From: an uncultured Candidatus Saccharibacteria bacterium | GTDB taxonomy: Bacteria > Patescibacteriota > UBA1384 > CAILIB01 | Length of the DNA: 64,000 nucleotides | Assembly (NCBI GenBank): GCA_964593885.1 | Contig: CAZQKK010000001.1 | Location: 233,929 to 297,928, forward strand | Direction: 5' to 3' | In this document: one piece after another, positions 13,644 through 61,036 of the stretch | How the letters are laid out: the number at the start of each line of letters is the position of its first letter | How positions within the stretch are numbered: position 1 is the stretch's first letter | Notes under the pieces: generated by a model | The model's input: the letters and a program-made list of their open reading frames with translations, nothing else | Database searches by the model: none | What the model was told of the DNA's origin: nothing | Translations under genes and position numbers: made by a program

Positions 13644-13670
13644 ACGCTCGCAGAAACTAGCACCAGCAAT

Positions 13671-13829: not shown

Positions 13830-13835
13830 GATCAT

Positions 13836-16437: not shown

Positions 16438-16447
16438 ATGATGTTGT

Positions 16448-16523: not shown

Positions 16524-16565
16524 GCAGCGACAGCAGACTACCAGATCACCAATACATGCACAATG

Positions 16566-17318: not shown

Positions 17319-17423
17319 GGTTGTTCTTAGCTAGTTTCTCTTTCTATCGTATCATTTTTTGACTTTTGGATTTAATCTTAATTTAATATTCTAACTGATA
17401 GTATCGCGTTGTAGTCGAAACAC

Positions 17424-21182: not shown

Positions 21183-21620
21183 ATTTTCAGTGTTTCTAAG
21201 CTTTACATCAAGATCTTGCATAATGGTCTTATCACCAAGTCTTGCTGCTAACGGCACGTAGTAGCTTAGTGTTTCAGCTATAATTCTTTTCTGCCTATTC
21301 AGTTCAAGGTGCGAAAGTGTTGAAAGGTTATGAATTCTGTCAGCCAACTTAACGTACGCAATGCGCTTATCATACTCAAAAAGAGTGCTGATTTTGTTTT
21401 GAGTTAACATATCAGCAACCTCCCTTTCCGCGTGTTCAACTTTTGTTGCACCATCAACCAGCATCGCCACTTCTTTACCGAATTGATACTCAATCTCCTC
21501 AAGTGTTCCTTCTGTATCCTCTACAACATCGTGTAATAGGGTGGCTACAACTGTATCTACTTCACAACCCCAGCAACACACTATCTCGGCCGCACTTACT
21601 AGGTGTGTCATATACGGCAC
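21174..21620 (-). CDS. Small HD-domain (p)ppGpp hydrolase (RelA/SpoT-type hydrolase domain only; SAH/Mesh1-like)
   Basis: LLHDVVEDT and KLADRIHNLSTL match RelA/SpoT HD-domain signature motifs. Confidence 0.7.
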   Translation of the reverse strand: MPYMTHLVSAAEIVCCWGCEVDTVVATLLHDVVEDTEGTLEEIEYQFGKEVAMLVDGATKVEHAEREVADMLTQNKISTLFEYDKRIAYVKLADRIHNLSTLSHLELNRQKRIIAETLSYYVPLAARLGDKTIMQDLDVKLRNTENLA

Positions 21621-21739
21621 CCCTTCTTGCCGCTTTTGATGACGGTGAACGTTGTTAGCATAATCTACCGCTCGTAAAATGCAGCTCTGCTCTGTAACTG
21701 AAAACCTTTCAAGGTAATGCTACTCTATTGTGAATAACA

Positions 21740-22219
21740 CTAGTACGCAACTACAAAAAATATAACGAGAAACGTACAAGCCAACACAAAGTTTGCGATG
21801 GTACCAGCAATTGCACCTGCCAATCCCGATAATCCAGCTTGTAAAGCATGGTGCATAGCTTTTATTTGCACTACCTCAGCAATGAATATCCCGAGGAATA
21901 GACCTATGAATGTCCCTACTAGCGGTAAAGCAAAGGTACCAATCAGCGAGCCAATAAATCCCCATAGTGCTGCCTGTTTTGTTGCACCACCAAACTTACT
22001 ACCAATGACCCCCGATGTATAGTCTATTACTAAGCTTACTAGGGCTATGGCAGCAAGCAGTAGTAACCAGCCAACTGTGAGACTTTGAAATTTTGTAAGG
22101 ATGGCATAGATAAGTGCAACAACAAACATGAATGGAATACCCGGAAAGATAGGGAGTAAGACGCCAATTAGTCCTATCCCCATCAGAACTATTACTAGAA
22201 TAGTAAGCACAATACTCAT
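21740..22219 (-). CDS. DUF456-like small polytopic membrane protein
   Basis: Start taken at the internal Met (MSIVLTILVIVLMGIGLIGVLLPIFPGIPF). Four TM helices. Confidence 0.45.
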   Translation of the reverse strand: MSIVLTILVIVLMGIGLIGVLLPIFPGIPFMFVVALIYAILTKFQSLTVGWLLLLAAIALVSLVIDYTSGVIGSKFGGATKQAALWGFIGSLIGTFALPLVGTFIGLFLGIFIAEVVQIKAMHHALQAGLSGLAGAIAGTIANFVLACTFLVIFFVVAY

Positions 22220-38020: not shown

Positions 38021-38095
38021 GCGGGTATCGTATAATGGTTATTACATCACCTTGCCATGGTGGAGATACGGGTTCGATTCCCGTTACCCGCTCCA
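38021..38095 (+). tRNA. tRNA-Gly(GCC): tRNA-Gly (anticodon GCC)
   Basis: GCGGGTA..TCACC-TTGCCAT-GGTGG..ACGGGTTCGATTCCCGT-TACCCGC-T-CCA. Confidence 0.8.
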
Positions 38096-38132
38096 AGATG
38101 AACTAACAATTCAAACGCGTGGAGCACCACAC

Positions 38133-38206
<74 letters not shown>

Positions 38207-38219
38207 ATAGTCCCCTCAT

Positions 38220-38438
38220 ATGCTTGCACTGCAAATTGTTCACATCATCATCTCAGCCCTCCTAGTAGCTAGCATCCTGCTCCAGCAACGAAGTAGCGGT
38301 TTGGGTGAAGCTTTTGGTGGCGATTCAACTGTTTTCAGTAGCCGTAGAGGTGTTGAAAAGATTCTCTACTACGCAACTATCGTCTTTGGCGTTAGTTTCG
38401 GAGTAATTGCTATCCTCCAGCTCATCATCGGCGGGTAG
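38220..38438 (+). CDS. secG: Preprotein translocase subunit SecG
   Basis: 72 aa, two TM helices flanking a Gly-rich loop (LLQQRSSGLGEAFGGDSTVFSSRRGVEKIL). Lies immediately upstream of a tRNA-Leu, as secG does in E. coli. Confidence 0.7.
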   Translation: MLALQIVHIIISALLVASILLQQRSSGLGEAFGGDSTVFSSRRGVEKILYYATIVFGVSFGVIAILQLIIGG

Positions 38439-38452
38439 GCAGAAAGGTTTCT

Positions 38453-38539
<87 letters not shown>

Positions 38540-38554
38540 CGACTCTTACAACCT

Positions 38555-38629
38555 GCCGAAGTAGCTCAGTGGTAGAGCAGTGGCCTGAAGAGCCTCGTGT
38601 CGTCAGTTCGATTCTGACCTTCGGCACCA
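38555..38629 (+). tRNA. tRNA-Phe(GAA): tRNA-Phe (anticodon GAA)
   Basis: GCCGAAG-TA-GCTCAGTGGTAGAGC..loop CTGAAGA..GTTCGATTC..CTTCGGC-A-CCA. One 28:42 mismatch in the anticodon stem. Confidence 0.75.
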
Positions 38630-38688
38630 TGAAAATTTGGTAGAATAGTTGAGAAAGTTTGATAGAAACAATCGCCCGGAGAAAGGAT

Positions 38689-38760
38689 TCTGTAAACTAT
38701 TGAGCGTACACCGTAGGTGTACATACAGATACTTCCACTAGCGATTTGTTTACAGAATAC
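38689..38760 (+). other. Structured spacer: 11-bp inverted repeat enclosing an internal 7-bp palindrome, between tRNA-Phe and tRNA-Val
   Basis: ATTCTGTAAAC ... GTACACCgtaGGTGTAC ... GTTTACAGAAT. Confidence 0.4.
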
Positions 38761-38768
38761 TTTCGTAG

Positions 38769-38844
38769 GGGCTCTTAGCTCAGTTGGTAGAGCGCCTCGT
38801 TTACACCGAGGATGTCAGAGGTTCGAGTCCTCTAGGGCCCACCA
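38769..38844 (+). tRNA. tRNA-Val(UAC): tRNA-Val (anticodon UAC)
   Basis: GGGCTCT-TA-GCTCAGTTGGTAGAGC-G-CCTCG-TTTACAC-CGAGG..AGAGGTTCGAGTCCTCT-AGGGCCC-A-CCA. Confidence 0.8.
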
Positions 38845-38879: not shown

Positions 38880-39016
38880 GTGTCACGTATGGGTGAGTCC
38901 TCTATAGCCATGGTATTACCATGGCTATCACAAGTGTCATATTCAGATGAAATCTGACTTGATACGCAGTATTGGCCCACCAAGAAAAAAGATAGTCGCA
39001 AGACTGTCTTTTTTCT
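38880..39016 (+). ncRNA. Candidate small structured RNA (three consecutive hairpins, the last a terminator)
   Basis: ATAGCCATGG-tatta-CCATGGCTAT (10 bp), TCAGAT-gaaa-ATCTGA (GNRA loop), AGATAGTC-gcaa-GACTGTCT followed by TTTTTT. No ORF. Confidence 0.3.
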
Positions 39017-39070
39017 TTTTCTGTTACCTTCACTCAACAGTTGCGTGCCTGTTTGTGATTAAATAGATGC

Positions 39071-39433
39071 ATGCAGGAACTTCTCTCTTTTTGGTTCATC
39101 TCTAGTGCTCCGCGAGCTCTCGCGGCATACCGCAGAACCATTGCTGGTTTTGAAGCAAACCTTGCAGTTGCCACTACTGCAAAAAACCTCGGAAAACCCC
39201 TCTTTCAAGATTACACCTTCCAGGGAAGGGTTATTGGCTTTGGCTTTAGAATCTTGCGCATTGTTTTTGGTTCGCTGCTCTACGTCATGATTGGAATACT
39301 CTTCGCCATTGCCTACCTTGCCTGGCTAGGCTTCCCCCTCTTCTGCATAGTTAGCTTAGTAGGGAGCTTTGTTGCCCCACCGCTCTCGGCAAGCTCTCAA
39401 CAACAGCAAATTGAGGATACATGGAGACCGTAA
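39071..39433 (+). CDS. Hypothetical membrane protein
   Basis: 120 aa, 2-3 TM helices, 13-nt overlap with the downstream Clp-like gene. Confidence 0.3.
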   Translation: MQELLSFWFISSAPRALAAYRRTIAGFEANLAVATTAKNLGKPLFQDYTFQGRVIGFGFRILRIVFGSLLYVMIGILFAIAYLAWLGFPLFCIVSLVGSFVAPPLSASSQQQQIEDTWRP

Positions 39434-42039
39434 CACTCACCCCCTGCCAGACCTGTGGAAGCTTAGGCTTGGTTGCTGGAATCTCCTGCGACACCTGTTT
39501 TGGATCAGGCTACCTACTCTCTATAGGCTCACAACCAGCAACCCTAACCGTACCTGGTGTTATTGCTCCTGGAATGACCTCAAGGAGGAAGGTAGCAACT
39601 GCAATTACGGTAGCGGCTGGCACCGTTACCTCCGTAGTCTGCATAGGTTGCTTTAGCTTGCTCCTGAGAGATGCATGGCCAAACCTCGCTCGAATCTTCT
39701 GGCAACACGGGTCAGTAGCAGGCATCTTTGGACTATCAGGCCTCCTCAGCATGGGAAGTCTTTCAGTCATGCCTGCTTCACGTACTGCAGGGAAGAATCT
39801 CCTCCAGATACCTACAACTGGCGACAGCTCCCCTCTCAATCTTTCTGACTACGCAAGCTCAAGCTACAACGATTTTCTTTCAGAGGCAGTAGTAACAGCT
39901 GGCAGCCTGGGGGCAGAGTACATCGAGGCTGATCACGTTCTCCTCACTCTCTGTGGCCTACCCCGGATACAGCTCATGCTCGCTCGTCTCGAGGTATCGC
40001 CAAGTCAACTTGTTGATGAGCTCAAACGGGTTATCACATCTGCAGGGTCGTCACACCAGCACGCACTACCTGTTGCACAGTCTTCTCGCTTACTCATGCT
40101 CAAAGCATTTGAGCAGGCAGTTACCCACCGTTTCCCAACAGTTGAGATTGAAGATATTTTCCTTGCCTACCTAGCTGAGACACAGGTGACTTCTCCTGAA
40201 ATTGTAGAGGTCCTTACTGCTTTTGGGATCACCCACCAGAAGTTCTTGGCAGTGAGTACCTGGTATGCAGGCGATGAGGCGCGCCACCAGAGGTGGAAGT
40301 TTTGGATTGAGCAGGCTCGAAGCCACCCGAAGAGCTACATGAATCGTGCCTGGACTGCACTCCCAACCCCACTCCTCGATAGCGTTGGAAAAGACCTCAC
40401 CCTTCTTGCTAGTTACGGAAAGATGTCTGATGGGACGAGTAGGGAGAAGGAGCTCGAGATGACGCTCCAAACACTCTCAGGTGGAAGCATAAAAAATGTC
40501 ATCCTTATTGGGGAAGACGGATCAGGGAGGAGTAGCATTATCTCCGCCCTGGCTACACGGATACTTGAAGACACCGTACCTGAGACGCTCAAGGATAGGC
40601 GTCTGGTTGAGCTTGACCTCAACCAGCTTCTAACCCAGGGAGATGGGACCTCAAACTTGCAGGCAGTAATCAACGAGGTTGTTCAGGCTGGCAACGTCAT
40701 CCTCTCTATTCCAGATGTAAAAGTGCTTGCAGGGACAGGCGAAGCTTTGGACGGCTCAACCATTCTCGCATCAGCTCTCAAAGACGGTTCAATTCAGGTA
40801 ATTACTACCTCAAACTACCAGGATTTCCACCGGTACGTGGAGCAAAACAGCAGCCTCAAGAGCCAGCTTCAAGCTGTTGAGATGCACGAACTTGAGCCTG
40901 GTGAGGTCTTGCCTATTCTTGAGGTGTTCACCGGCAAACTAGAGGCTGAATACGGTACCACCATTACCTACCCCGCTCTCGAGGCAGCAGCAAACCTAGC
41001 TCCACGCTACCTTTCGGAAAAGCCAGCTCCGGCAGGAGCGAAGCAGCTCCTAGAAACTGCCTGTAAAGTTGCCAAGAGCTCTGGGAGAAAGTGGGTGAGA
41101 AAACAGGAGGTTGAAGCTGCTATTGAGACCATGGTTCAGGTACCCGTCTCGCAGGCTTCAGGGGACGAGGCTGCTAACCTCCTCAACCTTGAAGAGACCC
41201 TCCATCAGAGAATCATTGGCCAAAACATTGCTGTCAGCGCCGTAGCTGAAGCACTGAGAAGGGCACGGTCTGGCCTGAATAGTGGCGATAGACCTCTCGG
41301 ATCCTTCCTCTTTGTGGGTCCTACAGGTGTTGGTAAAACTGAGCTCGCGAAAGCACTCTGCGAGAGCTACTTTGGCCCAGAGAGTGAAATGTTGAGGTTT
41401 GATATGTCTGAGTACCAGAACAAGGAGAGTCTGAGTACGCTGATTGGTACCACCGAAACCCAGGGAGGTACACTTACCCAAGCTATTCGTGAGAAACCTT
41501 TCAGTCTCGTACTCTTTGATGAGCTTGAGAAAGCCCACCCAGATATCCTCAACCTGTTTCTCCAGGTTCTCGACGAGGGAAGGCTTACCGAGGCAAGTGG
41601 GAGAACAGCAAACTTCAGAAACTCCATTATCATCGCTACCTCAAACGCCCAGGCACGGCAGGTGGGAGAGGCTGTTCAGAAGGGAGCAGACCAGAATGAG
41701 GTTATGCAGATTCTTGAGGCAAACTTTAAACCTGAGTTCTTGAACAGGTTTGATGGCATCATCCCCTTCATGCCGCTTCTCCCTGATGAGATTTTCAAGA
41801 TTACTGAGCTCCTCTGCGCGAATATCACCGCAAAAGCTGCGACGAAAGGCATCACTCTCACCCTTGAACCTGCCGCTGTCACGAGACTTGCAGAACTTGG
41901 CTTTGATCCGCTGTACGGCGCTCGCCCGCTCCGCAGGGTTGTTGAACAAAAACTTGAAGGAATACTCTCAAAGTTACTGCTTTCCCAGCAACTTTCAGAG
42001 GGTAGTTCATTGCAGATTACCCGTGCCATGTTAGACTAA
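39421..42039 (+). CDS. Clp/Hsp100-family AAA+ ATPase with N-terminal zinc ribbon, membrane anchor, Clp_N repeats, degenerate D1 and intact D2
   Basis: CQTCG..12 aa..CDTCFG ribbon. Hydrophobic segments aa 60-140. Two Clp_N-like repeats. D1 P-loop degenerate (GEDGSGRS, no DE Walker B). D2 intact (GPTGVGKTELAKAL, LVLFDELEKAHPD, GARPLRR). No obvious ClpP-binding loop. Confidence 0.75.
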   Translation: METVTLTPCQTCGSLGLVAGISCDTCFGSGYLLSIGSQPATLTVPGVIAPGMTSRRKVATAITVAAGTVTSVVCIGCFSLLLRDAWPNLARIFWQHGSVAGIFGLSGLLSMGSLSVMPASRTAGKNLLQIPTTGDSSPLNLSDYASSSYNDFLSEAVVTAGSLGAEYIEADHVLLTLCGLPRIQLMLARLEVSPSQLVDELKRVITSAGSSHQHALPVAQSSRLLMLKAFEQAVTHRFPTVEIEDIFLAYLAETQVTSPEIVEVLTAFGITHQKFLAVSTWYAGDEARHQRWKFWIEQARSHPKSYMNRAWTALPTPLLDSVGKDLTLLASYGKMSDGTSREKELEMTLQTLSGGSIKNVILIGEDGSGRSSIISALATRILEDTVPETLKDRRLVELDLNQLLTQGDGTSNLQAVINEVVQAGNVILSIPDVKVLAGTGEALDGSTILASALKDGSIQVITTSNYQDFHRYVEQNSSLKSQLQAVEMHELEPGEVLPILEVFTGKLEAEYGTTITYPALEAAANLAPRYLSEKPAPAGAKQLLETACKVAKSSGRKWVRKQEVEAAIETMVQVPVSQASGDEAANLLNLEETLHQRIIGQNIAVSAVAEALRRARSGLNSGDRPLGSFLFVGPTGVGKTELAKALCESYFGPESEMLRFDMSEYQNKESLSTLIGTTETQGGTLTQAIREKPFSLVLFDELEKAHPDILNLFLQVLDEGRLTEASGRTANFRNSIIIATSNAQARQVGEAVQKGADQNEVMQILEANFKPEFLNRFDGIIPFMPLLPDEIFKITELLCANITAKAATKGITLTLEPAAVTRLAELGFDPLYGARPLRRVVEQKLEGILSKLLLSQQLSEGSSLQITRAMLD

Positions 42040-42043
42040 ATTT

Positions 42044-42613
42044 ATGCAAAAACGCGGCTTTACCCTCATCGAGCTCTTGGTTACCATCGTCATTATTGGT
42101 CTGCTCACTACCATCGCAACCACCAGTTTTTTGACAGCTCAGAGGAACGCCAGAGACAACGCACGAAGGACTTCTCTCACCGCCATTGGAGCCGCGCTAG
42201 AGGCATACAAGCTTGTTGAGGGAACCTACCCTGGTGTAGTAAACCCAACTACAAGTCTACCGAATGATCCCAATCATGTTTCAAACACAAAGTGTGCGGT
42301 AAATGACACCTACTACTACAACCCAAATGCAACAGGTACAAGCGTCTGCCCAGATGCATTTAAACCAACACCAAACTGGATTCCAAAGCTTGCAAAATAC
42401 CTCACGCCAACCCCTATCGAGAAGCGTTACCTAGACTCAACAGCGGGGACCACTGGTGATGGTGTATTCGCTACTGCCGTCGGTTTTGAGGGCACACCTA
42501 ATCTCAATACCAGAACCTACTCATACAAAAAGACAGCCACTGGCTACAACGCATACGTCAGAATTGAAGGTACTGCCTGTGGAGGTACCACCATCTGTTC
42601 AATTGGAAAGTAA
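42044..42613 (+). CDS. Type IV pilin / pseudopilin (prepilin-type N-terminal cleavage/methylation domain)
   Basis: MQKRGFTLIELLVTIVIIGLL class III signal (G-1, F+1, E+5). 5-bp gap from the Clp-like gene. Confidence 0.85.
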   Translation: MQKRGFTLIELLVTIVIIGLLTTIATTSFLTAQRNARDNARRTSLTAIGAALEAYKLVEGTYPGVVNPTTSLPNDPNHVSNTKCAVNDTYYYNPNATGTSVCPDAFKPTPNWIPKLAKYLTPTPIEKRYLDSTAGTTGDGVFATAVGFEGTPNLNTRTYSYKKTATGYNAYVRIEGTACGGTTICSIGK

Positions 42614-42614
42614 C

Positions 42615-43166
42615 GTGAAATTTCGCGGTTTTATCCTCATTGAGCTTCTGGTAACCATTAGCATTATTGGACTGCTCATTGCTGCGGCAGCATTTTCGCT
42701 CACCAAATCAAGGATAAGTGCCCGGGATGCAGCCAGGTTTTCTGATGGCATCACCATTAGTAAGGCTCTCGATAGCTATTCTGCTATTAACAAGGGAAGC
42801 TACCCCATGACACAAGTTGCAACTTGCACGGATACCCTGCAGAGCTCTCTTGCTAGCTACCTACCTAACGCGAAGGCTATCCCTCAAGACCCAAAGCCAG
42901 AGCTCTCAAGCGGTAACACCAACTTCCGCAAGTGCTACACCGTCTACCGTAATGAGACTGGCACACTGGGAACGGGTCCTGCTGATAAAGCAAAGTACAC
43001 CTACGTACTTGAGATTGGATCAGAGAACACCGCTCCTTCAGACCTCTCAAGCTACATGACTAAGGATGAAATGATGATTGCCGCTTCACCATGGATTCCT
43101 GAAGACAGCCTGGTGAGAACTCCCTACTACTACACTGGACCATACTGCGACACAACCTGCCCGTAG
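42615..43166 (+). CDS. Type IV pilin / pseudopilin, second copy (GTG start)
   Basis: VKFRGFILIELLVTISIIGLL prepilin signal beginning 2 nt after the previous stop. C-terminal Cys pair (CDTTC). Confidence 0.75.
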   Translation: MKFRGFILIELLVTISIIGLLIAAAAFSLTKSRISARDAARFSDGITISKALDSYSAINKGSYPMTQVATCTDTLQSSLASYLPNAKAIPQDPKPELSSGNTNFRKCYTVYRNETGTLGTGPADKAKYTYVLEIGSENTAPSDLSSYMTKDEMMIAASPWIPEDSLVRTPYYYTGPYCDTTCP

Positions 43167-43252
43167 TCACCTCACAACACGAGTAGGTGGGGCTATTTTT
43201 TTAATTGACCATAGAGTATAAATTGGCTATAGTAGCCAGTATCAAATACCCC

Positions 43253-44530
43253 ATGGCAACCACCGAACTCACCCCAAAGCAGCAGTTTGCCGAACTGGTT
43301 AAGAACAGCCAGTCTATTTTGCTCGTTACCCACCACAATCCAGATGGGGACGCTGCAGGCTCAATCCTCGCCATGAAGCTTGGTCTCGAGAAGCTAGGTA
43401 AAGATGTAAGTGTTGTTGCAAGCGGAGATGCCCAGGAACCTCTCGCCTTCCTCCCTTCTTTCAGCTCCCTCAAAGAAGAGGTTTCACTCCAGAAAGAACT
43501 CCTCATTGTCCTTGATGAGACCCAGGCCAAAATTGGCAACATTTCGCTTAAGCGAATTGCCGAGAACAAGCTGGTTGTTGTGGTTACCCCTAAAGGTGGC
43601 ACCATCACTCCTTCAAATGTCAGGATTGAAGAGGGAAGTTTCAAGGTAGACCTCATCATCGCCCTTGATTGTGCCAACCTCGAGCGCGTAGGCAACCTGT
43701 ACGAAGAGAATACTGAACTCTTCTACGAAGTCCCTGTCGTCAACATTGACCACCACGCTTCAAACAACAACTTTGGTAAGGTAAATCTGGTAGATATCAC
43801 AGCTTCCTCTACTGCAGAAATCCTGGTCTCGCTCCTTGAAACCATCGGGAAAGATGTCACCGGAATGATTGATGCTGAGATTGCCACCTGTCTCCTCACT
43901 GGAATCACCACAGACACCGGTAGCTTCCAGAACGCCAATACCACTCCTAAGTCTCTCACCGTTGCCGCTCAACTAGTTGCTGCTGGAGGCCGTCAACAGG
44001 AAATTATCAAGCACATCTTCAGAACTCGCTCACTCTCAACCCTGAGACTCTGGGGTAGGGCACTCTCATACATCAAGGAAGACAGAGACCTAGCCTTTGC
44101 CTGGTCAACCCTTTCAAAGGCCGACTTTGTTGCTGCTCAAGCATCACAAGAAGAGTCTTCTGGCGTTATCGATGAGCTGCTGAAAACTGCCATGGGTATG
44201 AACTTTGTCCTCCTGCTTTCTGAGCGAGAAGGATCACTGCATGGCTCTTTCCGCGCCGTGAACCCTAGTACAGATGTTTCAGTGCTTGCCACCCTCTTTG
44301 GTGGAGGTGGTCACCCACAAGCTGCAGCCTTCAGTATGGCAAACGCTAACCTGAAAGATCAGGAAAATGAGGTTATCAAGAAGCTTCGAGAGCACCTCAA
44401 CGATCCAGTAGAAAAGCCCCAAGAGCCTTCTACCCCTCAAAAATCTACACCAAAACAGGTAAAGCAGCCTGAAAGCATCTTGAAGGATGGGGAAGAGACT
44501 GTGGTTTCGCTCCCAGAGCCATCTGCTTGA
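43253..44530 (+). CDS. DHH-family phosphoesterase (NrnA-like nanoRNase / pAp phosphatase) with low-complexity C-terminal tail
   Basis: DHH motif LLVTHHNPDGDAAGS. DHHA1 motif GGGGHPQAAAF. C-terminal KPQEPSTPQKSTPKQ tail. Start at the Met after a possible promoter (track ORF 43205). Confidence 0.7.
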   Translation: MATTELTPKQQFAELVKNSQSILLVTHHNPDGDAAGSILAMKLGLEKLGKDVSVVASGDAQEPLAFLPSFSSLKEEVSLQKELLIVLDETQAKIGNISLKRIAENKLVVVVTPKGGTITPSNVRIEEGSFKVDLIIALDCANLERVGNLYEENTELFYEVPVVNIDHHASNNNFGKVNLVDITASSTAEILVSLLETIGKDVTGMIDAEIATCLLTGITTDTGSFQNANTTPKSLTVAAQLVAAGGRQQEIIKHIFRTRSLSTLRLWGRALSYIKEDRDLAFAWSTLSKADFVAAQASQEESSGVIDELLKTAMGMNFVLLLSEREGSLHGSFRAVNPSTDVSVLATLFGGGGHPQAAAFSMANANLKDQENEVIKKLREHLNDPVEKPQEPSTPQKSTPKQVKQPESILKDGEETVVSLPEPSA

Positions 44531-47196: not shown

Positions 47197-47273
47197 TGGT
47201 CGGCCCAGCGGGACTCGAACCCGCGACCAACGCCTTATAAGAGCGCTGCTCTAACCAACTGAGCTATGGGCCG
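47197..47273 (-). tRNA. tRNA-Ile(UAU): tRNA-Ile-like with anticodon UAU (as read); unusual
   Basis: Reverse complement: CGGCCCA-TA-GCTCAGTTGGTTAGAGC-A-GCGCT-CTTATAA-GGCGT-TGGTC-GCGGGTTCGAGTCCCGC-TGGGCCG-A-CCA. Body resembles tRNA-Ile but the anticodon loop reads UAU, not GAU or CAU. Confidence 0.6.
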
Positions 47274-51135: not shown

Positions 51136-52110
51136 GTGGATAGCCTTGTTGCTCACCTTCGTGAGCATAGCCGCTTCATCCTCGTATCTCATGTCAGGCC
51201 TGATGGGGATGCGGTAGGGTCGCTCCTAGGTCTCTCGTACGGCCTCCACCAACTGGGAAAGGAGGTGACTCCTGTTCTTGTTGATGGTGTACCGAAAGCT
51301 TTCACGTTTTTGACTGATCGAATCCTCCCTGTACAAGAAGTACTTCCTAAGCCAGATACTGAGAGCATCTGCGTGCTCCTTGATGCCGCTGATGCCTCTC
51401 GGTGTGGTGATAGGGAAACCCTGCGCGAGTACGCAAATCGTCAGCGACTCATGGTTATCGATCACCACCCACTTGGTGATCTAGAGCCGAAAGCCCTTGC
51501 CTACTTTCACAACCTGGAAGCCTCCTCTACCTCAGAGATGGTTTACCATATTCTCGTTCAGCTTGGGTGCAGGATTACCCCGCAGATTGCGACATGCCTC
51601 TACTGTGGGATGTACACAGACACATCAGGCTTTAGGCACAGCAACACGACAACTACCACACTTGAAGTTGCCGCCGAACTCCTCAAACGGGGAGCAAACT
51701 TACGAAAAATTGTTGCTGAAATAGGTCAACAGAAGAGCATCTCAAGGTTACGCCTTACAGGTATTGCTATGCGGCGTGTCATGGTGAGCAAACGTTGGAA
51801 TACTGCATACTCGGTAGTGCAGCACGCTGATATTCTGGAGAACGAAGCAACTCCCGATGACGTAACGGGGATTGTGAACCAGGTGAGCGTCTTACCTGGT
51901 GTATCAAGCTTCATGATGCTCACCGAGGAGAAACCAGGAGTAATTAAGGGATCACTCAGAGTACCAGATGGAACTAAGCACAAGATTTCAGTGAGACCGC
52001 TTGCTAAGCTACTTGGCGGTGGTGGTCACAGCAGTGCGGCTGGGTTTGAAATCACCGGTTCGCTCAACCATACTGATGGGGCACATGGGGGGAGTTGGCG
52101 AGTAGACTAG
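51136..52110 (+). CDS. DHH-family phosphoesterase (NrnA-like), second paralogue
   Basis: DHH motif ILVSHVRPDGDAVGS, DHHA1 motif GGGGHSSAAGFE. Confidence 0.7.
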   Translation: MDSLVAHLREHSRFILVSHVRPDGDAVGSLLGLSYGLHQLGKEVTPVLVDGVPKAFTFLTDRILPVQEVLPKPDTESICVLLDAADASRCGDRETLREYANRQRLMVIDHHPLGDLEPKALAYFHNLEASSTSEMVYHILVQLGCRITPQIATCLYCGMYTDTSGFRHSNTTTTTLEVAAELLKRGANLRKIVAEIGQQKSISRLRLTGIAMRRVMVSKRWNTAYSVVQHADILENEATPDDVTGIVNQVSVLPGVSSFMMLTEEKPGVIKGSLRVPDGTKHKISVRPLAKLLGGGGHSSAAGFEITGSLNHTDGAHGGSWRVD

Positions 52111-54254: not shown

Positions 54255-56051
54255 ATGAAATTTCCATTCTTCAATAAATCTAACGGTGATGAGGCGGTAA
54301 TTGCCCAGCAAGACGCTGCCCTTTCTGCATACCAAGAAGGTCTCACCACTACCCGTGACATCATTGCCCCTTCTGATTTCCTGGTAACTACCAACTACAT
54401 CCAGCTTGGGACCTACTTTGTGAGGACCATTTTCGTCTACACCTACCCAAGGTTCCTCAACACCAACTGGCTCTCACCAATCATCAACTACGACTTCACG
54501 ATGGACATAAGCATGTTCATCATTCCTGAGGACGGTAGACAGGTAATGGAGTCGCTCAAGCGAAAGATGACCCAGCTTGAATCAACTAGAATGGTTGAGC
54601 AGGAGAAGGGATTAGTGCGAGACCCTGAGCTTGATACCGCCATCCACGACATCGACGAGCTCCGCGAGAGCCTCTCCCAGGGGCAGAACCGCCTCTTCCA
54701 GTACTCGCTCTACTTCACCATCTACGCAAAGAGCCTTGAGGAGTTGAACACCTTGAGCAAACAGCTTGAGTCTACCCTAGGAGGATCGCTCATTTACACC
54801 AAGGAGGCGGTTGTCCAGATGGAGCAAGGATTCAATTCCACCATTCCAATCATGTCTGATCAGCTGAGTATCCTGCGTAACCTGGACACCGCCTCACTCT
54901 CAACAACCTTCCCCTTCTCCTCAGCTGAGCTCACCTCAGACAACGGCATCCTCTACGGCATTAACCGTCACAACGACTCGCTCATTCTGTTTGATAGGTT
55001 CAACCTAGAGAACGCAAACTCTGTGGTGTTTGCCACATCTGGCGCTGGAAAGTCCTACTTCGTGAAGCTTGAGATTCTGAGGTACCTGATGCTCGGAACC
55101 GACGTGGTAATTATCGACCCAGAAAATGAGTACCAGAAACTAGCCGAGGCTGTGGGAGGTAACTACCTCGAGATTAGCCTCAACTCTGCCCAGAGAATCA
55201 ATCCTTTTGATCTCCCCGTTACTAGCCACCCAGAGGATGAGGCTGAAGATCTGCTTAGGTCTAACATCACCACCCTCCACGGTCTCATTAGGTTGATGGT
55301 AGGAGGACTTACCCCTGAGGAAGATGCATTGCTTGATAAGGCCCTCTACGAGGCATACGCGCTTCGCGATATCACCTCTGACCCCTCAACCCAGAGGAAT
55401 ACTCCCCCAGTTATGTCAGACCTGATTGCAGTTCTTGCAAACCTTAGGGGTGCCGAGAACCTCATTCTTCGCCTAGGCAAGTACGTTGAGGGAACCTTTG
55501 CCAACCTGTTCAACCAGCCTACCAACTTTAAGCTAGACAGCGGCCTCGTAGTCTTTTCAGTACGAGACCTTGAAGAGTCTCTTCGCCCCATTGCCATCTT
55601 CATGATCCTCAACTACATCTGGAATAACGTGAGGGCTGAGATGAAGCGAAGGCTCATGGTAGTTGATGAGGCGTGGTGGATGATGCAGTACGAGGACTCT
55701 GCCAGGTTCCTCTACGGCCTAGCCAAACGTGCCCGTAAGTACTTCCTTGGCCTCACCATCATTTCGCAGGACGTTGAAGACTTCCTTGCCAACAAGTACG
55801 GGAAGGCAGTGGTATCAAACTCGGCTATGCAGATCCTCTTGAAGCAGAGTACCTCGTCAATTGACGTGATTAGCCAGGTATTCAACCTCACTGAGCAGGA
55901 GAAGTACCTCCTCATTAACGCCTCGGTAGGGGAAGGGCTCTTCTTTGCTGGTCTCAACCATGTGGCAGTAAAGATTACCGCCTCCTACACTGAGGATCAG
56001 ATCATTACCTCAGACCCAAAGCAGCTCTTAGCAATGCGTTCAGCCTCGTAA
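54255..56051 (+). CDS. VirB4/TraC/CagE-family type IV secretion ATPase (ATPase part)
   Basis: IAPSDFLVTTNYIQLGTYFVRTIFVYTYPR domain, Walker A VVFATSGAGKSYFVK, Walker B RLMVVDEAWWMM, ISQDVEDF. GGAGG RBS 9 nt upstream. Confidence 0.8.
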   Translation: MKFPFFNKSNGDEAVIAQQDAALSAYQEGLTTTRDIIAPSDFLVTTNYIQLGTYFVRTIFVYTYPRFLNTNWLSPIINYDFTMDISMFIIPEDGRQVMESLKRKMTQLESTRMVEQEKGLVRDPELDTAIHDIDELRESLSQGQNRLFQYSLYFTIYAKSLEELNTLSKQLESTLGGSLIYTKEAVVQMEQGFNSTIPIMSDQLSILRNLDTASLSTTFPFSSAELTSDNGILYGINRHNDSLILFDRFNLENANSVVFATSGAGKSYFVKLEILRYLMLGTDVVIIDPENEYQKLAEAVGGNYLEISLNSAQRINPFDLPVTSHPEDEAEDLLRSNITTLHGLIRLMVGGLTPEEDALLDKALYEAYALRDITSDPSTQRNTPPVMSDLIAVLANLRGAENLILRLGKYVEGTFANLFNQPTNFKLDSGLVVFSVRDLEESLRPIAIFMILNYIWNNVRAEMKRRLMVVDEAWWMMQYEDSARFLYGLAKRARKYFLGLTIISQDVEDFLANKYGKAVVSNSAMQILLKQSTSSIDVISQVFNLTEQEKYLLINASVGEGLFFAGLNHVAVKITASYTEDQIITSDPKQLLAMRSAS

Positions 56052-56055
56052 ACCT

Positions 56056-56496
56056 ATGCGCAAACTGTTCCTCTCACTCCTTCTAGCACTGTGCATTCTT
56101 GCACCATTTAGTGGGTCGGTTACTAGTGTACGTGCAGAAAAAATAGAGGAGGTAAGCTTAGGTAGGGACAAAAACGGGAACCCAACAAGGGTGGAGAAGA
56201 ATTGCTACTGGGATAAAGATACGAAGGGTATCCTCGTTGACTACAAAGTTGTTCAGGGAACAGCCCCAGGTAGTGAAAAGGTCTTCACGTGCTACCTGAG
56301 GGTTTTCCTAGCCGGAAACAGCGCACTCATCGTCACTGTTGCGGTGATTATTGTGGTGTTTTCAGGCATCCAGTACATGCTTGCCCTTGGAAACAGTGGC
56401 ACCCAGGCTAAGGCGAAGCAACGCGTGGTAAGCGTTCTTACGGGAGTTGTTTTTCTAACCCTCATCAGGTTCTTCCTAACGATAATCAAGGGGTAG
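56056..56496 (+). CDS. VirB2/TrbC-like pilin family protein (T4SS-linked paralogue 6)
   Basis: Signal peptide. Two TM helices separated by a Lys-rich loop (ALGNSGTQAKAKQR). Confidence 0.5.
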   Translation: MRKLFLSLLLALCILAPFSGSVTSVRAEKIEEVSLGRDKNGNPTRVEKNCYWDKDTKGILVDYKVVQGTAPGSEKVFTCYLRVFLAGNSALIVTVAVIIVVFSGIQYMLALGNSGTQAKAKQRVVSVLTGVVFLTLIRFFLTIIKG

Positions 56497-56497
56497 C

Positions 56498-57757
56498 ATG
56501 GAGCCTTCCCGCGCCAAAGCAAACCCATTCAAGAAAAAGCAGCAGCGCTCAAGGGTTCTCCTGATGACACTGGCGGCGGCCTCTCTCCTTGTAATTTCTG
56601 GAGGATTCTACCTCTACCTACGATCTCAAGAAACCGGCATTCTCATCTTAGACAGTACTAAGAACCTGGTGGTAAGCCTTAATGGCAGGCAGGTGCAAAC
56701 CCAAACTCAATCACGAGGTATCTTCGTCCCGGTGTACTCTGGCACCTATCGCCTACAAATTGACAAGCCAAACTACCAACCATTTATCACCGATGTCACC
56801 ACTGAGCCTGGGGATATTGCTGAGATTAGGCCGGCATTTACCCTAGTTCCCAGCTTAAAGGAGGCAGTCGGAGATGCTGTTGATTTTGTTCAACCTTCAT
56901 TTGATGAGAAGTACGTCTACTACCTGGGCGATTTTAGGCAGCGCCTCTTCAGGTACGATGTAGCCGCCCAGCAGAGTACGCCACTCACCATAGAGGCACT
57001 CAACGGTGTGAGGGATGTCCAGTGGGGTGGAAACCCTGAAGTTGCCCTTATCGTTCAGGCTGATGGGACCTACCTCCATGAGGTTCCCACCTTTGACTTT
57101 AAGCACCAGATCTTTGCAAAGGTTGCCGGCCCTGAAGTTGTATCACCCATTTGGGATCCAATGAATTCAGAACGTCTTGCTGCTGCCTACATTACACCTA
57201 GAGGAGAGCGGTCTCTCATCACCTCTGATAAGAGATTTACCTCAATTAGCAGACTGGCTAGCCTTGATAGCATTCCTAACCCAGATATCACCTGGTCTCC
57301 TGATGGGAATCTTCTCCTCCTGAGAGGGGTGGACAGCAACCCACAGCGAAATAACCTCTGGCTCTACCGTATGGCCACTGCTGAGTTCACCCAGCTCACC
57401 TCAACTGGAGGTGTTACTTCTGCCTCATTCAACCCAACCTCAGAAAAGGTACTCTACGATACGAGCCTCTCTTCGGGAAATCAGCGCGCCGTTATCACCA
57501 TTGCCGATCAGAGCACCTCACAGCTACCGCTAGATGGCGTAGGTAGTGCGATCGCCTGGAAGGATGCAGGTAGCTACTTCGCCCCAAGCTCTGGCGGTTC
57601 TCTCAACCTTGTTACCCTACAGGGAGCGGTTACCACCTTCCCGATTACCATTCCTACACAGGAAGAAATCACATCACTGACCTACGTAAGCAGCTTAAAG
57701 CGTCTGGTGTTTGCCACCTCAACTGCCGTTTACAGCATAGATCTAGAGAGTAACTAG
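56498..57757 (+). CDS. Membrane-anchored protein with PEGA-like domain and TolB-like beta-propeller repeats
   Basis: N-terminal TM. PEGA-like segment LNGRQVQTQTQSRGIFVPVYSGTYRLQIDKPNY. Repeated ..SPDG../..DP.. blade motifs (ITWSPDGNLLLL). Confidence 0.4.
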   Translation: MEPSRAKANPFKKKQQRSRVLLMTLAAASLLVISGGFYLYLRSQETGILILDSTKNLVVSLNGRQVQTQTQSRGIFVPVYSGTYRLQIDKPNYQPFITDVTTEPGDIAEIRPAFTLVPSLKEAVGDAVDFVQPSFDEKYVYYLGDFRQRLFRYDVAAQQSTPLTIEALNGVRDVQWGGNPEVALIVQADGTYLHEVPTFDFKHQIFAKVAGPEVVSPIWDPMNSERLAAAYITPRGERSLITSDKRFTSISRLASLDSIPNPDITWSPDGNLLLLRGVDSNPQRNNLWLYRMATAEFTQLTSTGGVTSASFNPTSEKVLYDTSLSSGNQRAVITIADQSTSQLPLDGVGSAIAWKDAGSYFAPSSGGSLNLVTLQGAVTTFPITIPTQEEITSLTYVSSLKRLVFATSTAVYSIDLESN

Positions 57758-57758
57758 T

Positions 57759-59801
57759 ATGCCAGTTCTTGAACCACCTACTGACGACTTGACTAGGCGA
57801 GTAACTAGTGACGAGCTATCCCCAGATGGCCTAGATTTGGATACTGGAATTAACCCCCTAGTAGACCAGCCGCTGTTTATTGGTGAAAACAGAGCTCCTG
57901 GTATCCAACCCAACCCAGCTAACAGCAACTCAGCCGATCAACGTGAGAAGAGTTTCCGCGACGAGTACCGCGATCGGAAACAGGCAAAGAAGGATGGCAC
58001 AGAGCCTCGCGGTAAAGAGCTCCCTTCTACAAAGAACCAGCACGCAATTACCCCTCAAGATCAGCAGCTCATTAGTCAAATTGAGGAGCTGGTAAAGAAC
58101 AAAAAGTACGGCCGTGCGCTCGCCATGATTGCTGGCAACCCAAAGGTGAGAGAGCTGATGCGTAGCAAGGTGAGCGAGATTAGGAACCAGATGGCCCTTG
58201 AGGCTGCCAAGGCTAGGGTGAAGATGCTCATCAAGAACGCAATCAGGAGTGCTGTAATGGACATCTTAGTTGCGACCTCACCGTGGTGGGAGATTATCCT
58301 CGTGGTGATTCTCTGTATCATCGCTCTCGTGATAGGAATTGCCATCATGATGAGTAGACCAGTTGATAACCCTCCAAGCGACGTTCCTCTGGGCATAACT
58401 AACGGTAACGAAACTGGGGTTTACCTGAGCAGTAGCATCATGACGCCAAGCATGAAGGTTAGTGACAACTCTGGGAAAACTAATGCGAGAACGCGAGAGC
58501 TCCACCTTGAAACCACCGCTGGTGGTTGGAGCCCAGAAGAGGCTGTAGATGCTCGAGGAAGCAACTGGTGTATTCCTGGAAAGGGATGCCTATCCATGGG
58601 AAGCATTCTTGGCGGGAGCGTTACTGAAGAAGACATGGAGAGCTACGCAACTGCGCGTTTTCCCTACGTGTATGGCTTTGACTTTGACTACCGTGGATCT
58701 AAAGATGGAGCGCCAAGGCAAGGTTGGGGAGAGATGAAAGACTACGCCGGGAAAAAGATCATAATGTTCAATCCAAAGACAAAGAAAGCAGTTGTGGCTT
58801 TGGCTGCAGAATTTGGACCTGCACCATGGACCGGAGTCTGCGCGGATCGAGATTCTGGATCAAATAACTCATCGAATAAGCGCATTACCGTTCCGTGCAG
58901 TGAGCAACGAACATCATGGAATGCCCGTGATGTCGTTGCAGGCCCAAAGAGCCGCACTATACCCAAAGACCTCCGTGCATACGACATCACCCCTCCTGCC
59001 GGCTACTCTGGCCGTATTGCAGGAGGAGAGCCAAAACTTGCTGCAAAAATCGGGATTGGTACTGACCAAGTGGTGATCATCGGTTACGCTGCCGATCAGA
59101 GTTTAAAACCCGGCACCGTTCTCACCATCAAAGATTCTGACATCCTTACCGTAGGAGGCGGTGAGAAACGTGTTGCAGGTGTCCTTCCGGTACCTGGAGT
59201 CTCCGAGGGTCAAAAGAGTGACTGTGGTGATGCTAGTGGTGTCATGACGGCTCTCTACTACGCATCAGATAAGGGTGCAAAAACCCTCACCTACGACCAG
59301 CTCCCACCGGGAATAAAGAACCAGGTTGAGGTGGTTCCACCAGATTTGCAGGCAACAGCTGGTAGGTTTAAAACAAAATCTACCAACGGTGCAGGGGTTT
59401 GCTTGAGTCCTAACTTCATCAACCAGATAAGCGGTTCAGGTGGCGATTGGCAATTTGTCAGCAAAGTCACTGAACCTAAGGGCTTTGAAAAAGCAGTCAC
59501 ATCTATAAAAAATGGAGATCCTGTCGTCATGTATACCCGCGCAGGTGGGTTCTACGGAAACACACAACACATCTTTGTTCTCGTCGGTTACGATGAAACA
59601 ACCAAAGAGTTTATTGTAAACAACCCAACCTGTAATGGTGCAGCTGCTAATGGTGGAAAGTGTACCCCACCAGAGGTAAATGTTGGAATTAAGGGTGGAG
59701 AAGCAGGAGCACCGAGACTGTCATTTGAACACCTCTTTAACTACCAGGGATCTGGGACGTACGGTCATTCTCTAATCATTCGTAAGAAATGGTGGCAGTA
59801 A
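57759..59801 (+). CDS. Membrane-anchored protein with C-terminal papain-like (peptidase C39-like/CHAP-like) domain; candidate cell-wall hydrolase of the secretion apparatus
   Basis: Central TM (IILVVILCIIALVIGIAIMM). Candidate Cys (GKGCLSMGSILGG) and C-terminal His motif HIFVLVGYDETTKEFIVNNP as in C39-like peptidases. Confidence 0.4.
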   Translation: MPVLEPPTDDLTRRVTSDELSPDGLDLDTGINPLVDQPLFIGENRAPGIQPNPANSNSADQREKSFRDEYRDRKQAKKDGTEPRGKELPSTKNQHAITPQDQQLISQIEELVKNKKYGRALAMIAGNPKVRELMRSKVSEIRNQMALEAAKARVKMLIKNAIRSAVMDILVATSPWWEIILVVILCIIALVIGIAIMMSRPVDNPPSDVPLGITNGNETGVYLSSSIMTPSMKVSDNSGKTNARTRELHLETTAGGWSPEEAVDARGSNWCIPGKGCLSMGSILGGSVTEEDMESYATARFPYVYGFDFDYRGSKDGAPRQGWGEMKDYAGKKIIMFNPKTKKAVVALAAEFGPAPWTGVCADRDSGSNNSSNKRITVPCSEQRTSWNARDVVAGPKSRTIPKDLRAYDITPPAGYSGRIAGGEPKLAAKIGIGTDQVVIIGYAADQSLKPGTVLTIKDSDILTVGGGEKRVAGVLPVPGVSEGQKSDCGDASGVMTALYYASDKGAKTLTYDQLPPGIKNQVEVVPPDLQATAGRFKTKSTNGAGVCLSPNFINQISGSGGDWQFVSKVTEPKGFEKAVTSIKNGDPVVMYTRAGGFYGNTQHIFVLVGYDETTKEFIVNNPTCNGAAANGGKCTPPEVNVGIKGGEAGAPRLSFEHLFNYQGSGTYGHSLIIRKKWWQ

Positions 59802-61036
59802 TGAGGTCAGAAGCAACGTATACTGGTGGCATGAGACGTGTCTCTGGAAATACCACTCTCATCGTTGCCGCAGTTGTTGTGGCTGTAGTCCTCATAGTAG
59901 GGGGTGCTTTTGTGGTTGGCATTGGGAGCAATCCTGCAAACCCAGTTCGAGACCAGCAAGACCCAAAACCTGTAGACCTCACTAACTCAGAAACCCAAGC
60001 CCTCTCAAAATCGCTCAGTGCAAAAATTGATAGCTGTGCCGCAATCAGAGAGAACGAGAAGTTCCTTACTGAACTCTCAGACAGCCTCACTGACGAGGGG
60101 AGTATCGGCAAGTACATCACCACCAACGTGACAGATAAGGCAAAGCGCGATGAACTCAATACCCTTCGCCAAGAAGCAAACGCTGCCCTCCAACTCCTCA
60201 TCACAAAGGGTGCTGAGTGTAGTAACAGTAAAACCGCTACTAACCTTGATAAAGAGGTGAGTGACCTCTGGGCAACTACGAGGCAAAAGATCAGCATCCT
60301 CCAGGCTGCTCTCGTGAAGTCACTTGCTGGAAAGTACTACTTCCCAGGTGTTGAGCAGGGAGCAGATAACTACTGTCAGCAGGCTGCAGCAGCTATGGTA
60401 GCCCTTACCTACCTCAGCAACTATGGTGCCACCCCTATAACCCAGCTAGATGCAGCTACTCTTCCAGCGAGCCTCCAGGAAGCTCTCGGTGGTAACTCTA
60501 GTGTAGGTGAATACCCTGCAGGATGGGCGAAGTTCAATAATGATCCTGAAAAAGTTCGGGCCGCGGTTGCCAACCGTGCCAGTATTGCATGGTTTACAAC
60601 CCCAAAGAATCCTAAATCTTGTCCAGTTGGTGACATGCACTTTGTGGTACGGCTATTCAAATCCATTGGTGCACCCATGCCAGATGACTGGGCCTACATT
60701 TCAGATGACGGATACCGAGGAATTATCACACCGGACTACAAGACTTCAGATCCTGGCATTAGAGATAAAGTGTATGCAGCTGTAAAGCTTTCACTCACAG
60801 CAGTCCCTCCTGATCCAGTTGTTGCTGACTTTACCAACCTTGGAGCCTGTAGCTACGGTCACAATATTCCACTATTCATCTTTAACGGAACTCGTTTTAT
60901 TACCAATAACCCAGGTAAAGGAAATGTAAAGTACAACCAAACAACCTGTGGGAGGAAAGAGCTCTCAGAGGAAAACGTAAAGAAGTTCGCTCGAATGGTT
61001 GTGCGTAAGAAGTACCTAACTCAAGTTGGGCTCTAG
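59789..61036 (+). CDS. Second membrane-anchored papain-like (C39-like) peptidase-domain protein
   Basis: TM (TTLIVAAVVVAVVLIVGGAFVV), Cys motif YCQQAAAAMVALTYL, His motif GDMHFVVRLF. Overlaps the upstream stop; the true start may be 59801 or 59831. Confidence 0.4.
   Translation: MVAVMRSEATYTGGMRRVSGNTTLIVAAVVVAVVLIVGGAFVVGIGSNPANPVRDQQDPKPVDLTNSETQALSKSLSAKIDSCAAIRENEKFLTELSDSLTDEGSIGKYITTNVTDKAKRDELNTLRQEANAALQLLITKGAECSNSKTATNLDKEVSDLWATTRQKISILQAALVKSLAGKYYFPGVEQGADNYCQQAAAAMVALTYLSNYGATPITQLDAATLPASLQEALGGNSSVGEYPAGWAKFNNDPEKVRAAVANRASIAWFTTPKNPKSCPVGDMHFVVRLFKSIGAPMPDDWAYISDDGYRGIITPDYKTSDPGIRDKVYAAVKLSLTAVPPDPVVADFTNLGACSYGHNIPLFIFNGTRFITNNPGKGNVKYNQTTCGRKELSEENVKKFARMVVRKKYLTQVGL

Follow-up and report, generated by a model that had tools for sequence, protein, structure and literature searches.

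A predicted membrane-anchored Hsp100-like ATPase and its small membrane partner gene in the Candidate Phyla Radiation

What might a membrane-anchored Clp-type ATPase be doing immediately upstream of two type IV prepilin genes? The question is raised by a locus in an uncultured Candidatus Saccharibacteria bacterium (GenBank assembly GCA_964593885.1). We analyzed a 64,000-nucleotide stretch of its contig CAZQKK010000001.1 (positions 233,929 to 297,928 of the forward strand), which is referred to as the window and which supplies all coordinates below. A sequence-only reading of the window, made by a model that searched no databases, had described an Hsp100-like protein of 872 amino acids (aa) and had proposed that it could be a dedicated pilin chaperone or disassembly factor or, alternatively, a new membrane-quality-control unit. 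The open reading frame (ORF) at 39421-42039 (+) and the Pfam, NCBIfam, and Foldseek results agree with its description as Hsp100-like. The interpretation that we slightly favor, at a probability of roughly 0.55, is that the ATPase belongs to a two-component membrane AAA+ machine found throughout the Candidate Phyla Radiation (CPR; Patescibacteria). This machine would be independent of ClpP, powered by the second AAA+ module (D2) of the ATPase, and probably nonthreading, and its partner would be a small membrane protein, here called up120, rather than the pilins. The two genes are as follows.

39071..39433, + strand: up120, a small membrane protein of 120 aa (ORF, alignment, and profile search)
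39421..42039, + strand: membrane-anchored Hsp100/Clp-like ATPase of 872 aa (ORF, Pfam, NCBIfam, AlphaFold2, and Foldseek)

The up120 gene, which did not figure in the sequence-only reading, ends 13 nucleotides (nt) inside the ATPase ORF, and a GAGGA Shine-Dalgarno sequence precedes the ATG of the ATPase. The up120 protein has an N-terminal helical part with a conserved NL..PL[YF]QDY motif, predicted to be cytoplasmic, and a C-terminal pair of hydrophobic helices with a W-L-x-x-P turn between them. Its AlphaFold2 model was all-helical at low confidence (predicted local distance difference test score [pLDDT] of 65), and no family in Pfam or NCBIfam matched it. A profile hidden Markov model found up120 directly upstream of the ATPase gene, on the same strand, at 81 of 84 loci. 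At the three exceptions the ATPase gene lies at a contig edge, and the adjacency thus holds at 81 of the 81 loci that can be evaluated. When all neighboring ORFs were clustered, up120 was the single family-wide neighbor of the ATPase. When 1.84 billion cluster representatives were searched with a profile, 402 relatives of up120 were recovered, nearly all of 85 to 155 aa; the few longer ones carry the up120 domain N-terminally on a Clp-like protein.

Such natural fusions of up120 and the ATPase, which are without zinc knuckles, were found in P0267 (L087:35-2575), P0263, P0241, P0271, and P0220. P0267 is a protein of 846 aa with Pfam AAA_2 and ClpB_D2-small domains. An artifact of reading through a TGA codon was considered as an explanation for P0267 and rejected; L087 is uninterrupted under translation table 11, and the codon at the junction is TGG. 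Apparent fusions in L021, L046, L057, and L072 were discarded, as they had an in-frame stop or an over-extended ORF. The combination of universal adjacency with natural fusions suggests that up120 and the ATPase form one functional unit.

Relatives of the ATPase were collected in two ways. A protein search yielded about ten full-length relatives (36 to 88% identity), all of which share the zinc knuckles, hydrophobic segments, and signature linker described below. P0004 and P0008 are N-terminally truncated as gene calls, but the knuckles are encoded in the longer ORFs of L006 and L004. A scan for the linker motif MN[RK][AG][WM]TA, with one genome per species, detected 236 species genomes, from which 80 loci were kept. 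The family must be larger than this, because the fusions carry a linker variant, VNRGWLGVPTP, that falls outside the pattern of the scan. The titles of the 80 loci include Berkel-, Sacchari-, Uhr-, Kerfeld-, Buchanan-, Wolfe-, Jorgensen-, and Magasanikbacteria, Paceibacterota, and Microgenomates. Sixty-three of the contigs are titled as a CPR lineage or with the unspecific 'bacterium', and 17 as 'uncultured Gammaproteobacteria bacterium'. The latter records are third-party annotation (TPA) co-assembly bins (including L022, L028-L030, L036, L037, L041-L044, L046, L056, L060, and L077), and their titles look like wrong or placeholder labels.

Almost every family member has the membrane anchor, and the catalytic motifs of D2 hardly vary. 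The window has every element of the arrangement: up120 upstream, the hydrophobic anchor, a linker of the MNRAWTA type, a dead first AAA+ module (D1), and a live D2. By these features, up120 and the membrane Clp protein constitute a predicted two-gene module that is conserved across the CPR. CPR bacteria have tiny genomes, and recurrence of the module across many lineages with such genomes suggests a core function. Neither Pfam nor NCBIfam has a curated family that accommodates the ATPase or up120. Full-text literature searches returned no description of the up120/membrane-Clp family, and a paper on the type IV pilus of TM7x does not mention Clp.

The features of the ATPase are listed here in order along the gene.

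39445..39510, + strand: zinc-knuckle pair CQTCGSLG...CDTCFGSG of the DnaJ CxxCxGxG type, aa 9-30 (sequence reading)
39589..39771, + strand: two hydrophobic helices, aa 57-83 and 98-117, separated by a W/R-rich loop of 14 aa (Kyte-Doolittle and AlphaFold2)
39841..40221, + strand: putative Clp_N-like helical N-domain, aa 141-267 (ClpA model, Pfam, and AlphaFold2)
40255..40401, + strand: family-signature linker, a long helix followed by the motif PKSYMNRAWTALPTPLLD..DLT, aa 279-327 (invariant or near-invariant in the clade)
40510..40872, + strand: degenerate D1 motifs (motif census)
41317..41937, + strand: D2 motor (motif census and HMMER alignment)

Pfam recognized AAA_2 (4e-49), ClpB_D2-small (8e-19), and AAA_lid_9 in the 872-aa protein, and its two tandem AAA+ modules with a ClpB-type D2 and D2-small place it in class I of the Hsp100/Clp proteins. 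The NCBIfam ClpA model gave a single continuous alignment over residues 148-867. The score was nevertheless far below the cutoff for all of the curated Clp equivalogs: 480 versus 1232 bits for ClpB (TIGR03346), 446 versus 993 for ClpA, 379 versus 885 for ClpV/TssH, 386 versus 1900 for ClpK, and 375 versus 1900 for ClpG. The best relatives of solved structure, as found with phmmer in the PDB, were Thermus thermophilus ClpB (E=4e-120) and the ClpC proteins of Staphylococcus aureus and Bacillus subtilis. Foldseek matched the AlphaFold2 model (mean pLDDT, 79.7) to ClpC and ClpB protomers with template modeling (TM) scores of ~0.75-0.78. The Pfam scan detected no M41 peptidase domain, and the C terminus is ClpB_D2-small, which sets the protein apart from the FtsH type.

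The N terminus had been read as a zinc ribbon of the form C-x2-C-x12-C-x2-C. The four cysteines are present, but their spacing is C9-x2-C12-x10-C23-x2-C26 and they form two CxxCxGxG knuckles of the DnaJ type. The Pfam models DnaJ_CXXCXGXG and Anti-TRAP gave only subthreshold matches to this region, and metal binding by the knuckles is putative. The knuckles are conserved in P0002-P0010 and, family-wide, at ~37 of 86 loci. A link between the zinc module and pilin adjacency was considered and rejected; many loci without pilins carry the knuckles, and about half of the family is without them.

The hydrophobic membrane segments of the sequence-only reading correspond to two predicted helices that relatives have kept. 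Their Kyte-Doolittle peaks are 2.12 (aa 57-83) and 1.67 (aa 98-117), AlphaFold2 placed helices at 53-85 and 98-122, and hydrophobic N-terminal segments occur in ~80 of 84 family members. Basic R/K residues flank the segments on the N- and C-terminal sides, a pattern that predicts a hairpin with both ends inside (N-in/C-in). With this topology, the zinc module and the AAA body would both be cytoplasmic. The Clp_N repeats that had also been reported are less secure. The Pfam Clp_N match is weak (E=0.012; 16.2 bits versus a cutoff of 20.7), although AlphaFold2 modeled a helical bundle at aa 141-267 (pLDDT, 76-93), and precomputed PF02861 matches exist on several homologues. The signature linker that follows reads PKxYMNRAWTALPTPFLD in close relatives. 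The linker helix (aa 272-301) was rejected as a candidate interfacial amphipathic helix, its hydrophobic moment being 0.01-0.33 compared with a protein-wide mean of 0.23.

To compare the two AAA+ modules with those of known enzymes, ~80 family members were aligned with one ClpB and one ClpC reference in a motif census. In D1 of the window protein, the P-loop GEDGSGRS (aa 364-371) has R in place of K, the Walker B segment ILSIPDVK (427-434) has P-D instead of D-E, the arginine-finger position SSLKSQLQ (477-484) has KS instead of RR, and the KYR pore loop (aa 403-412) is deleted. The degenerate P-loop and the missing Walker B acidic pair were thus correctly recognized in the sequence-only reading. 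Neither the Walker B D-E pair nor the pore-loop aromatic is found in D1 of any of the 80 members, and 11 of the 80 have the RR finger. The P-loop lysine is kept in 71 of the 80 and replaced in the clade of the window protein (GSGRS). D1 would therefore be unable to hydrolyze ATP, because it lacks the Walker B glutamate, the arginine finger and, in the window clade, also the P-loop lysine.

D2 had been called fully canonical. All of its catalytic motifs are indeed intact: Walker A GPTGVGKT (633-640), Walker B LFDELE (696-706), sensor-1 TSN, arginine finger NRFD (771-779), and sensor-2 GAR (832-839). However, its pore loop 1 (674-687) is cut from LIGAPPGYVGYEEGG to LIGTT------ETQGG, with loss of GYVG, and an independent HMMER alignment to ClpB in the PDB gave the same deletion. 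In the census, Walker A was present in 79, the sensor-1 asparagine in 80, and the sensor-2 GAR in 78 of the 80 members, whereas the D2 pore loop was shorter than that of ClpB in 58 of the 80, and G-Y/F occupied the canonical place in ~9. Both the KYR loop of D1 and the GYVG loop of D2 are deleted from the window protein, and neither of the aromatic pore-loop residues expected of a threading enzyme is present. The label 'unfoldase' that the protein had been given is doubtful for this reason. Three features were considered together. The acidic Walker B residue and RR finger of D1, and the G-Y of D2, are all retained in 8 members and all lost in 58, with 14 intermediates. The correlation of these losses suggests that the family descends from a threading ancestor and has departed from its activity, the window protein being at the degenerate extreme.

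The distance from P-loop to P-loop is 272 residues, compared with 399 in ClpB and 338 in ClpC. The coiled-coil M-domain between D1 and D2 is absent, and the alignment has a gap opposite the M-domain of ClpB; therefore, DnaK coupling of the ClpB type is not expected. The earlier remark that no ClpP-docking loop was evident also agrees with the alignment. There is no [ILV]G[FL] tripeptide in the corresponding ATPase loop (743-770), which has 28 aa, the length found in ClpB, versus 40 aa with LGF in ClpC. The IGF/LGF loop is missing in 76 of 79 family members, and the remaining 3 have MGL in a loop of ClpB length. The lack of a docking loop argues that the ATPase is not a protease partner.

In the two-component machine that we favor, the ATPase and up120 would assemble as a ring on the cytoplasmic side of the membrane. 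D1 would serve as a structural or nucleotide-binding ring, as D2 of NSF or D1 of p97 does, and D2 would be the sole motor. ATP hydrolysis by D2 would drive conformational change or remodeling of membrane-associated clients, not their processive threading. In the lineage of the window, the module would be cotranscribed with two conserved orphan pilin genes, the products of which are candidate clients.

Several considerations weigh against this interpretation. All statements on the oligomeric state, ATPase activity, membrane topology, and clients are predictions from sequence, and physical interaction between up120 and the ATPase is suggested by gene order and fusions. The loss of the pore loops argues against threading without proving its absence, and a minority of family members keep the G-Y loop. 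The ancestor may have been a threading enzyme, and residual translocation through other residues may occur. The P0267 fusion has three hydrophobic segments compared with four in the unfused pair, which would be incompatible with simple membrane-spanning hairpins (2+2) unless one segment is reentrant. Furthermore, the spacing between the ATPase gene and the pilin gene in the window clade is always tight (from overlap to 33 nt) compared with 58 to 168 nt between the pilin gene and the DHH gene that follows, so a pilin connection is possible.

Comparison with known systems suggests where the machine might belong. The window ATPase resembles ClpB and ClpC in its D1, D2, and D2-small domains and a putative Clp_N-like domain, in its best sequence and fold matches, in its identical D2 catalytic motifs, and in the ClpB length of the loop from sensor-1 to PEFLNR. 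It differs from them in having a zinc knuckle, a membrane hairpin, and an obligate small membrane partner gene, and in being without the M-domain, the D1 Walker B, the D1 arginine finger, the aromatic pore loops and, in its clade, the D1 P-loop lysine. ClpE and ClpX also have an N-terminal Cys4 zinc module ahead of a Clp ATPase, but these proteins are soluble, with an IGF-type ClpP loop and GYVG pore loops, whereas the window protein has knuckles of the DnaJ CxxCxGxG type with membrane helices behind them.

FtsH and Msp1/ATAD1 are AAA+ rings that act on membrane proteins and are tethered by N-terminal helices, and FtsH works with small membrane partners. The window ATPase shares with them a membrane tether of N-terminal helices at the cytoplasmic face. 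Unlike it, FtsH and Msp1 belong to another AAA clade and have a single ring and aromatic pore loops; they are unrelated to up120, and FtsH has a protease domain. Torsin is related to Clp D2, has no aromatic pore loop, is membrane associated, and depends on a membrane-spanning partner, LAP1 or LULL1. The arginine finger of Torsin is supplied by the partner, whereas that of D2 in the window protein is intact, and Torsin is a eukaryotic, single-ring protein of the endoplasmic reticulum lumen. We regard Torsin with LAP1/LULL1 as the closest functional analogy and FtsH/Msp1 as analogues for the tether. D2 of NSF and D1 of p97 offer a parallel for D1 in that one ring keeps residues for nucleotide binding but not for hydrolysis, as do the 71 of 80 family members with a D1 lysine. 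The parallel is incomplete, because the window clade lacks even this lysine and because its working ring is without pore loops, unlike D1 of NSF and D2 of p97.

More tentatively, the family might represent an undescribed CPR-wide class of Hsp100 proteins that is anchored by a hairpin, has an obligate small subunit, has abandoned threading, and uses D2 for a membrane task, for example, to pull on or gate membrane-embedded clients, which might be pilins or further envelope proteins of the episymbiotic cells. If this is true, a catalytic D2 without pore loops would call into question the idea that Hsp100 proteins work by threading, and bacteria would have a counterpart of Torsin and similar AAA+ proteins that are membrane associated and depend on a partner. 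A practical implication is that the automatic names ClpA, ClpB, and ClpC are not evidence of ClpP-dependent proteolysis or of disaggregase capacity in CPR genomes.

An unlikely alternative to the nonthreading machine is that the ATPase is a classical threading unfoldase or disaggregase, a membrane-tethered, ClpB-like quality-control enzyme that grips its substrates through noncanonical pore residues. The ClpB/ClpC fold and the intact D2 motor are what such an enzyme would have, and FtsH and Msp1 provide analogous examples of membrane-anchored AAA+ enzymes. In addition, a threading ancestor is suggested by 8 to 11 family members in which D1 still has its P-loop lysine, a D-D Walker B, and the RR finger and D2 still has the G-Y/F loop. 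However, the window protein and 58 of its 80 relatives are without aromatic pore loops in both rings, and in ClpB mutation of the D2 pore tyrosine abolishes disaggregation. A dead D1 and the lack of an M-domain for cooperation with DnaK also speak against this possibility.

The remaining question is whether the pilins define the function of the ATPase. The features that bear on it are as follows.

38982..39017, + strand: terminator-like hairpin, a 16-bp stem followed by TTTCTGTT, after the tRNA cluster (consensus scan, prediction only)
42044..42613, + strand: prepilin 1, 189 aa, leader MQKRG followed by FTLIELLV (N_methyl and GspG N-terminal match)
42615..43166, + strand: prepilin 2, 183 aa, GTG start at 42615, leader MKFRG followed by FILIELLV (N_methyl)
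43205..43233, + strand: sigma-70-like promoter match TTGACC-17-TATAGT, 10/12, between the prepilin 2 and DHH genes (consensus scan, prediction only)

The two prepilin genes, recognized earlier by GFTLIELLV and GFILIELLV, both encode proteins that match N_methyl (PF07963; E=2.8e-8 for prepilin 1 and 2.1e-5 for prepilin 2) and TIGR02532, which identifies both as prepilins. The window has no other prepilin ORF. Prepilin 1 has an N-terminal match to NCBIfam GspG and full-length homologues (>90% query coverage) down to 34% identity, and the two prepilins are paralogous over their N-terminal 64 aa (48% identity). The tight tandem order that had been described is real, although the gaps are 4 nt from the ATPase stop to prepilin 1 and 1 nt from the prepilin 1 stop to prepilin 2, not 5 bp and 2 nt. 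The hairpin at 38982-39017 is probably the upstream boundary of a transcription unit and the promoter match at 43205-43233 probably its downstream boundary, so that up120, the ATPase gene, and the two prepilin genes form one predicted transcription unit bracketed by both sites. Five tRNA genes lie directly upstream of the operon at 38021-38844 (Gly-GCC, Cys-GCA, Leu-CAG, Phe-GAA, and Val-TAC). The listed 101-aa ORF at 38325-38630 (-) overlaps tRNA-Leu and tRNA-Phe and is almost certainly spurious.

The sequence-only reading had noted that the adjacency would be coincidental if no membrane helices were predicted and the gene pair was conserved in no related genome. Helices are predicted, and the ATPase and pilin genes are also adjacent in 12 distinct related contigs, with identities as low as ~41% for the ATPase and 49 to 59% for PNPase. 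The loci followed by pilin genes (L001-L008, L010, L012, the contig of P0005, L088, L090, and L091) belong exclusively to the window's own clade, in which the block up120-Clp-pilin(1-3)-DHH-S15-PNPase is syntenic. Spacing that is short between the ATPase and pilin genes and longer between the pilin and DHH genes makes cotranscription of the former likely in this clade. At ~70 loci from other CPR lineages there is no pilin gene downstream of the ATPase. Genes downstream there encode MFS_1, Glycos_transf_4, NUDIX, GlyRS, and PolX-like proteins, often after a gap of 0 to 4 nt, which indicates that tight spacing to unrelated genes is normal in compact CPR genomes. An apparent enrichment of membrane proteins directly downstream of the ATPase (36/59 versus a background of 37%) came from few independent families without phylogenetic correction and was set aside as too weak.

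The pilins and the ATPase have also been uncoupled naturally. L089, a close relative (PNPase 71% and FtsK 69% identical), has the order FtsK-YchF-SecG...pilin-pilin-DHH-S15-PNPase without up120 or the ATPase at the locus. In their stead, the interval from SecG to the two pilin genes contains an unrelated 260-aa gene on the opposite strand, without a Pfam family (L089:5174-5956, -).

It is rather improbable, then, that the ATPase is a dedicated pilin factor that chaperones, extracts, or recycles the two coencoded type IV pilins in the cytoplasmic membrane. The recurrence of the adjacency with its tight spacing in 12 contigs, the predicted terminator and promoter bracketing the four genes, and the positional conservation of the pilin orthologues are consistent with that role. 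However, the ~70 family members without a pilin neighbor and the intact pilin pair and synteny of L089 without up120 or the ATPase are not, and the same synteny would tie the pilins equally well to NrnA, S15, and PNPase. A Pfam scan of the 30 larger ORFs of the window found no pilus machinery (PilB/GspE ATPase, PilC platform, PilM/N/O, or PilD peptidase) and no ClpP or ClpX. Mechanistically, there are no pore-loop aromatics with which to grip and extract a helix, and the prepilin leader exposed to the cytoplasm has only 5 residues. We conclude that the pilins, rather than defining the machine, are passengers specific to this lineage or, possibly, clients. The suggestion of a new membrane-quality-control unit survives in its general sense, as a new membrane unit; the pilin-specific reading is poorly supported, since the adjacency is confined to one clade, L089 lacks it, and up120 is the family-wide partner. 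The pilin link is weaker than it first appeared.

We consider it very improbable that the ATPase is a decaying or nonenzymatic relic that acts only as a structural scaffold. Progressive loss of D1 and pore-loop features could be read in this way, but the D2 catalytic motifs have hardly changed even among lineages with identities of ~33-36%, a full-length intact ORF has been kept in tiny genomes, and the link to up120 is obligate. That the protein is an ordinary ClpA or ClpC orthologue serving as the ATPase partner of ClpP is hardly credible, even though the Joint Genome Institute (JGI) annotates P0003-P0008 as ClpA or ClpC and the ClpA model aligns end to end, because the IGF/LGF loop is missing in nearly all members, the scores are far under the cutoffs, D1 is dead, the pore loops are gone, and there is a membrane anchor; the JGI names are misleading.

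Elsewhere in the window there are two paralogues of the DHH/DHHA1 (NrnA-like) type, at 43253-44530 and 51136-52110, the first of which belongs to the conserved DHH-rpsO-pnp block after the pilin genes. The TTG start listed for this gene, at 43205, lies inside the promoter-like site, and the ATG at 43253 is thus the more likely start. A tRNA-Ile gene with the anticodon TAT is located at 47197-47273 (-). Bacteria usually decode AUA with a lysidine-modified CAT tRNA, and a TAT anticodon is uncommon.

The G+C content is 0.40-0.44 at ~10000-22000 and ~0.50 elsewhere in the window, and the low-G+C region may be an acquired island. It encodes a secreted CAP-domain protein (11237-11818, -), a Na+/H+ exchanger with TrkA_N (11892-13643), an OmpR-type response regulator and a histidine kinase (17424-19573), and a 585-aa ORF without a Pfam match (19425-21182). 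Genes resembling those of type IV secretion or conjugation are found at 9102-9809 and 54255-61036 and include one for a T4SS_pilin-like protein, a TraG/VirB4-type P-loop ATPase (54255-56051), and a 680-aa Peptidase_C39-like protein (57759-59801). On their flanks lie ORFs of 415-419 aa without a Pfam match. Near the start of the window, 777-3176 encodes a 799-aa protein with a gametolysin-like M11 peptidase domain, and 4711-5961 (-) encodes a membrane glycosyltransferase of the PMT family (protein O-mannosyltransferase-like).

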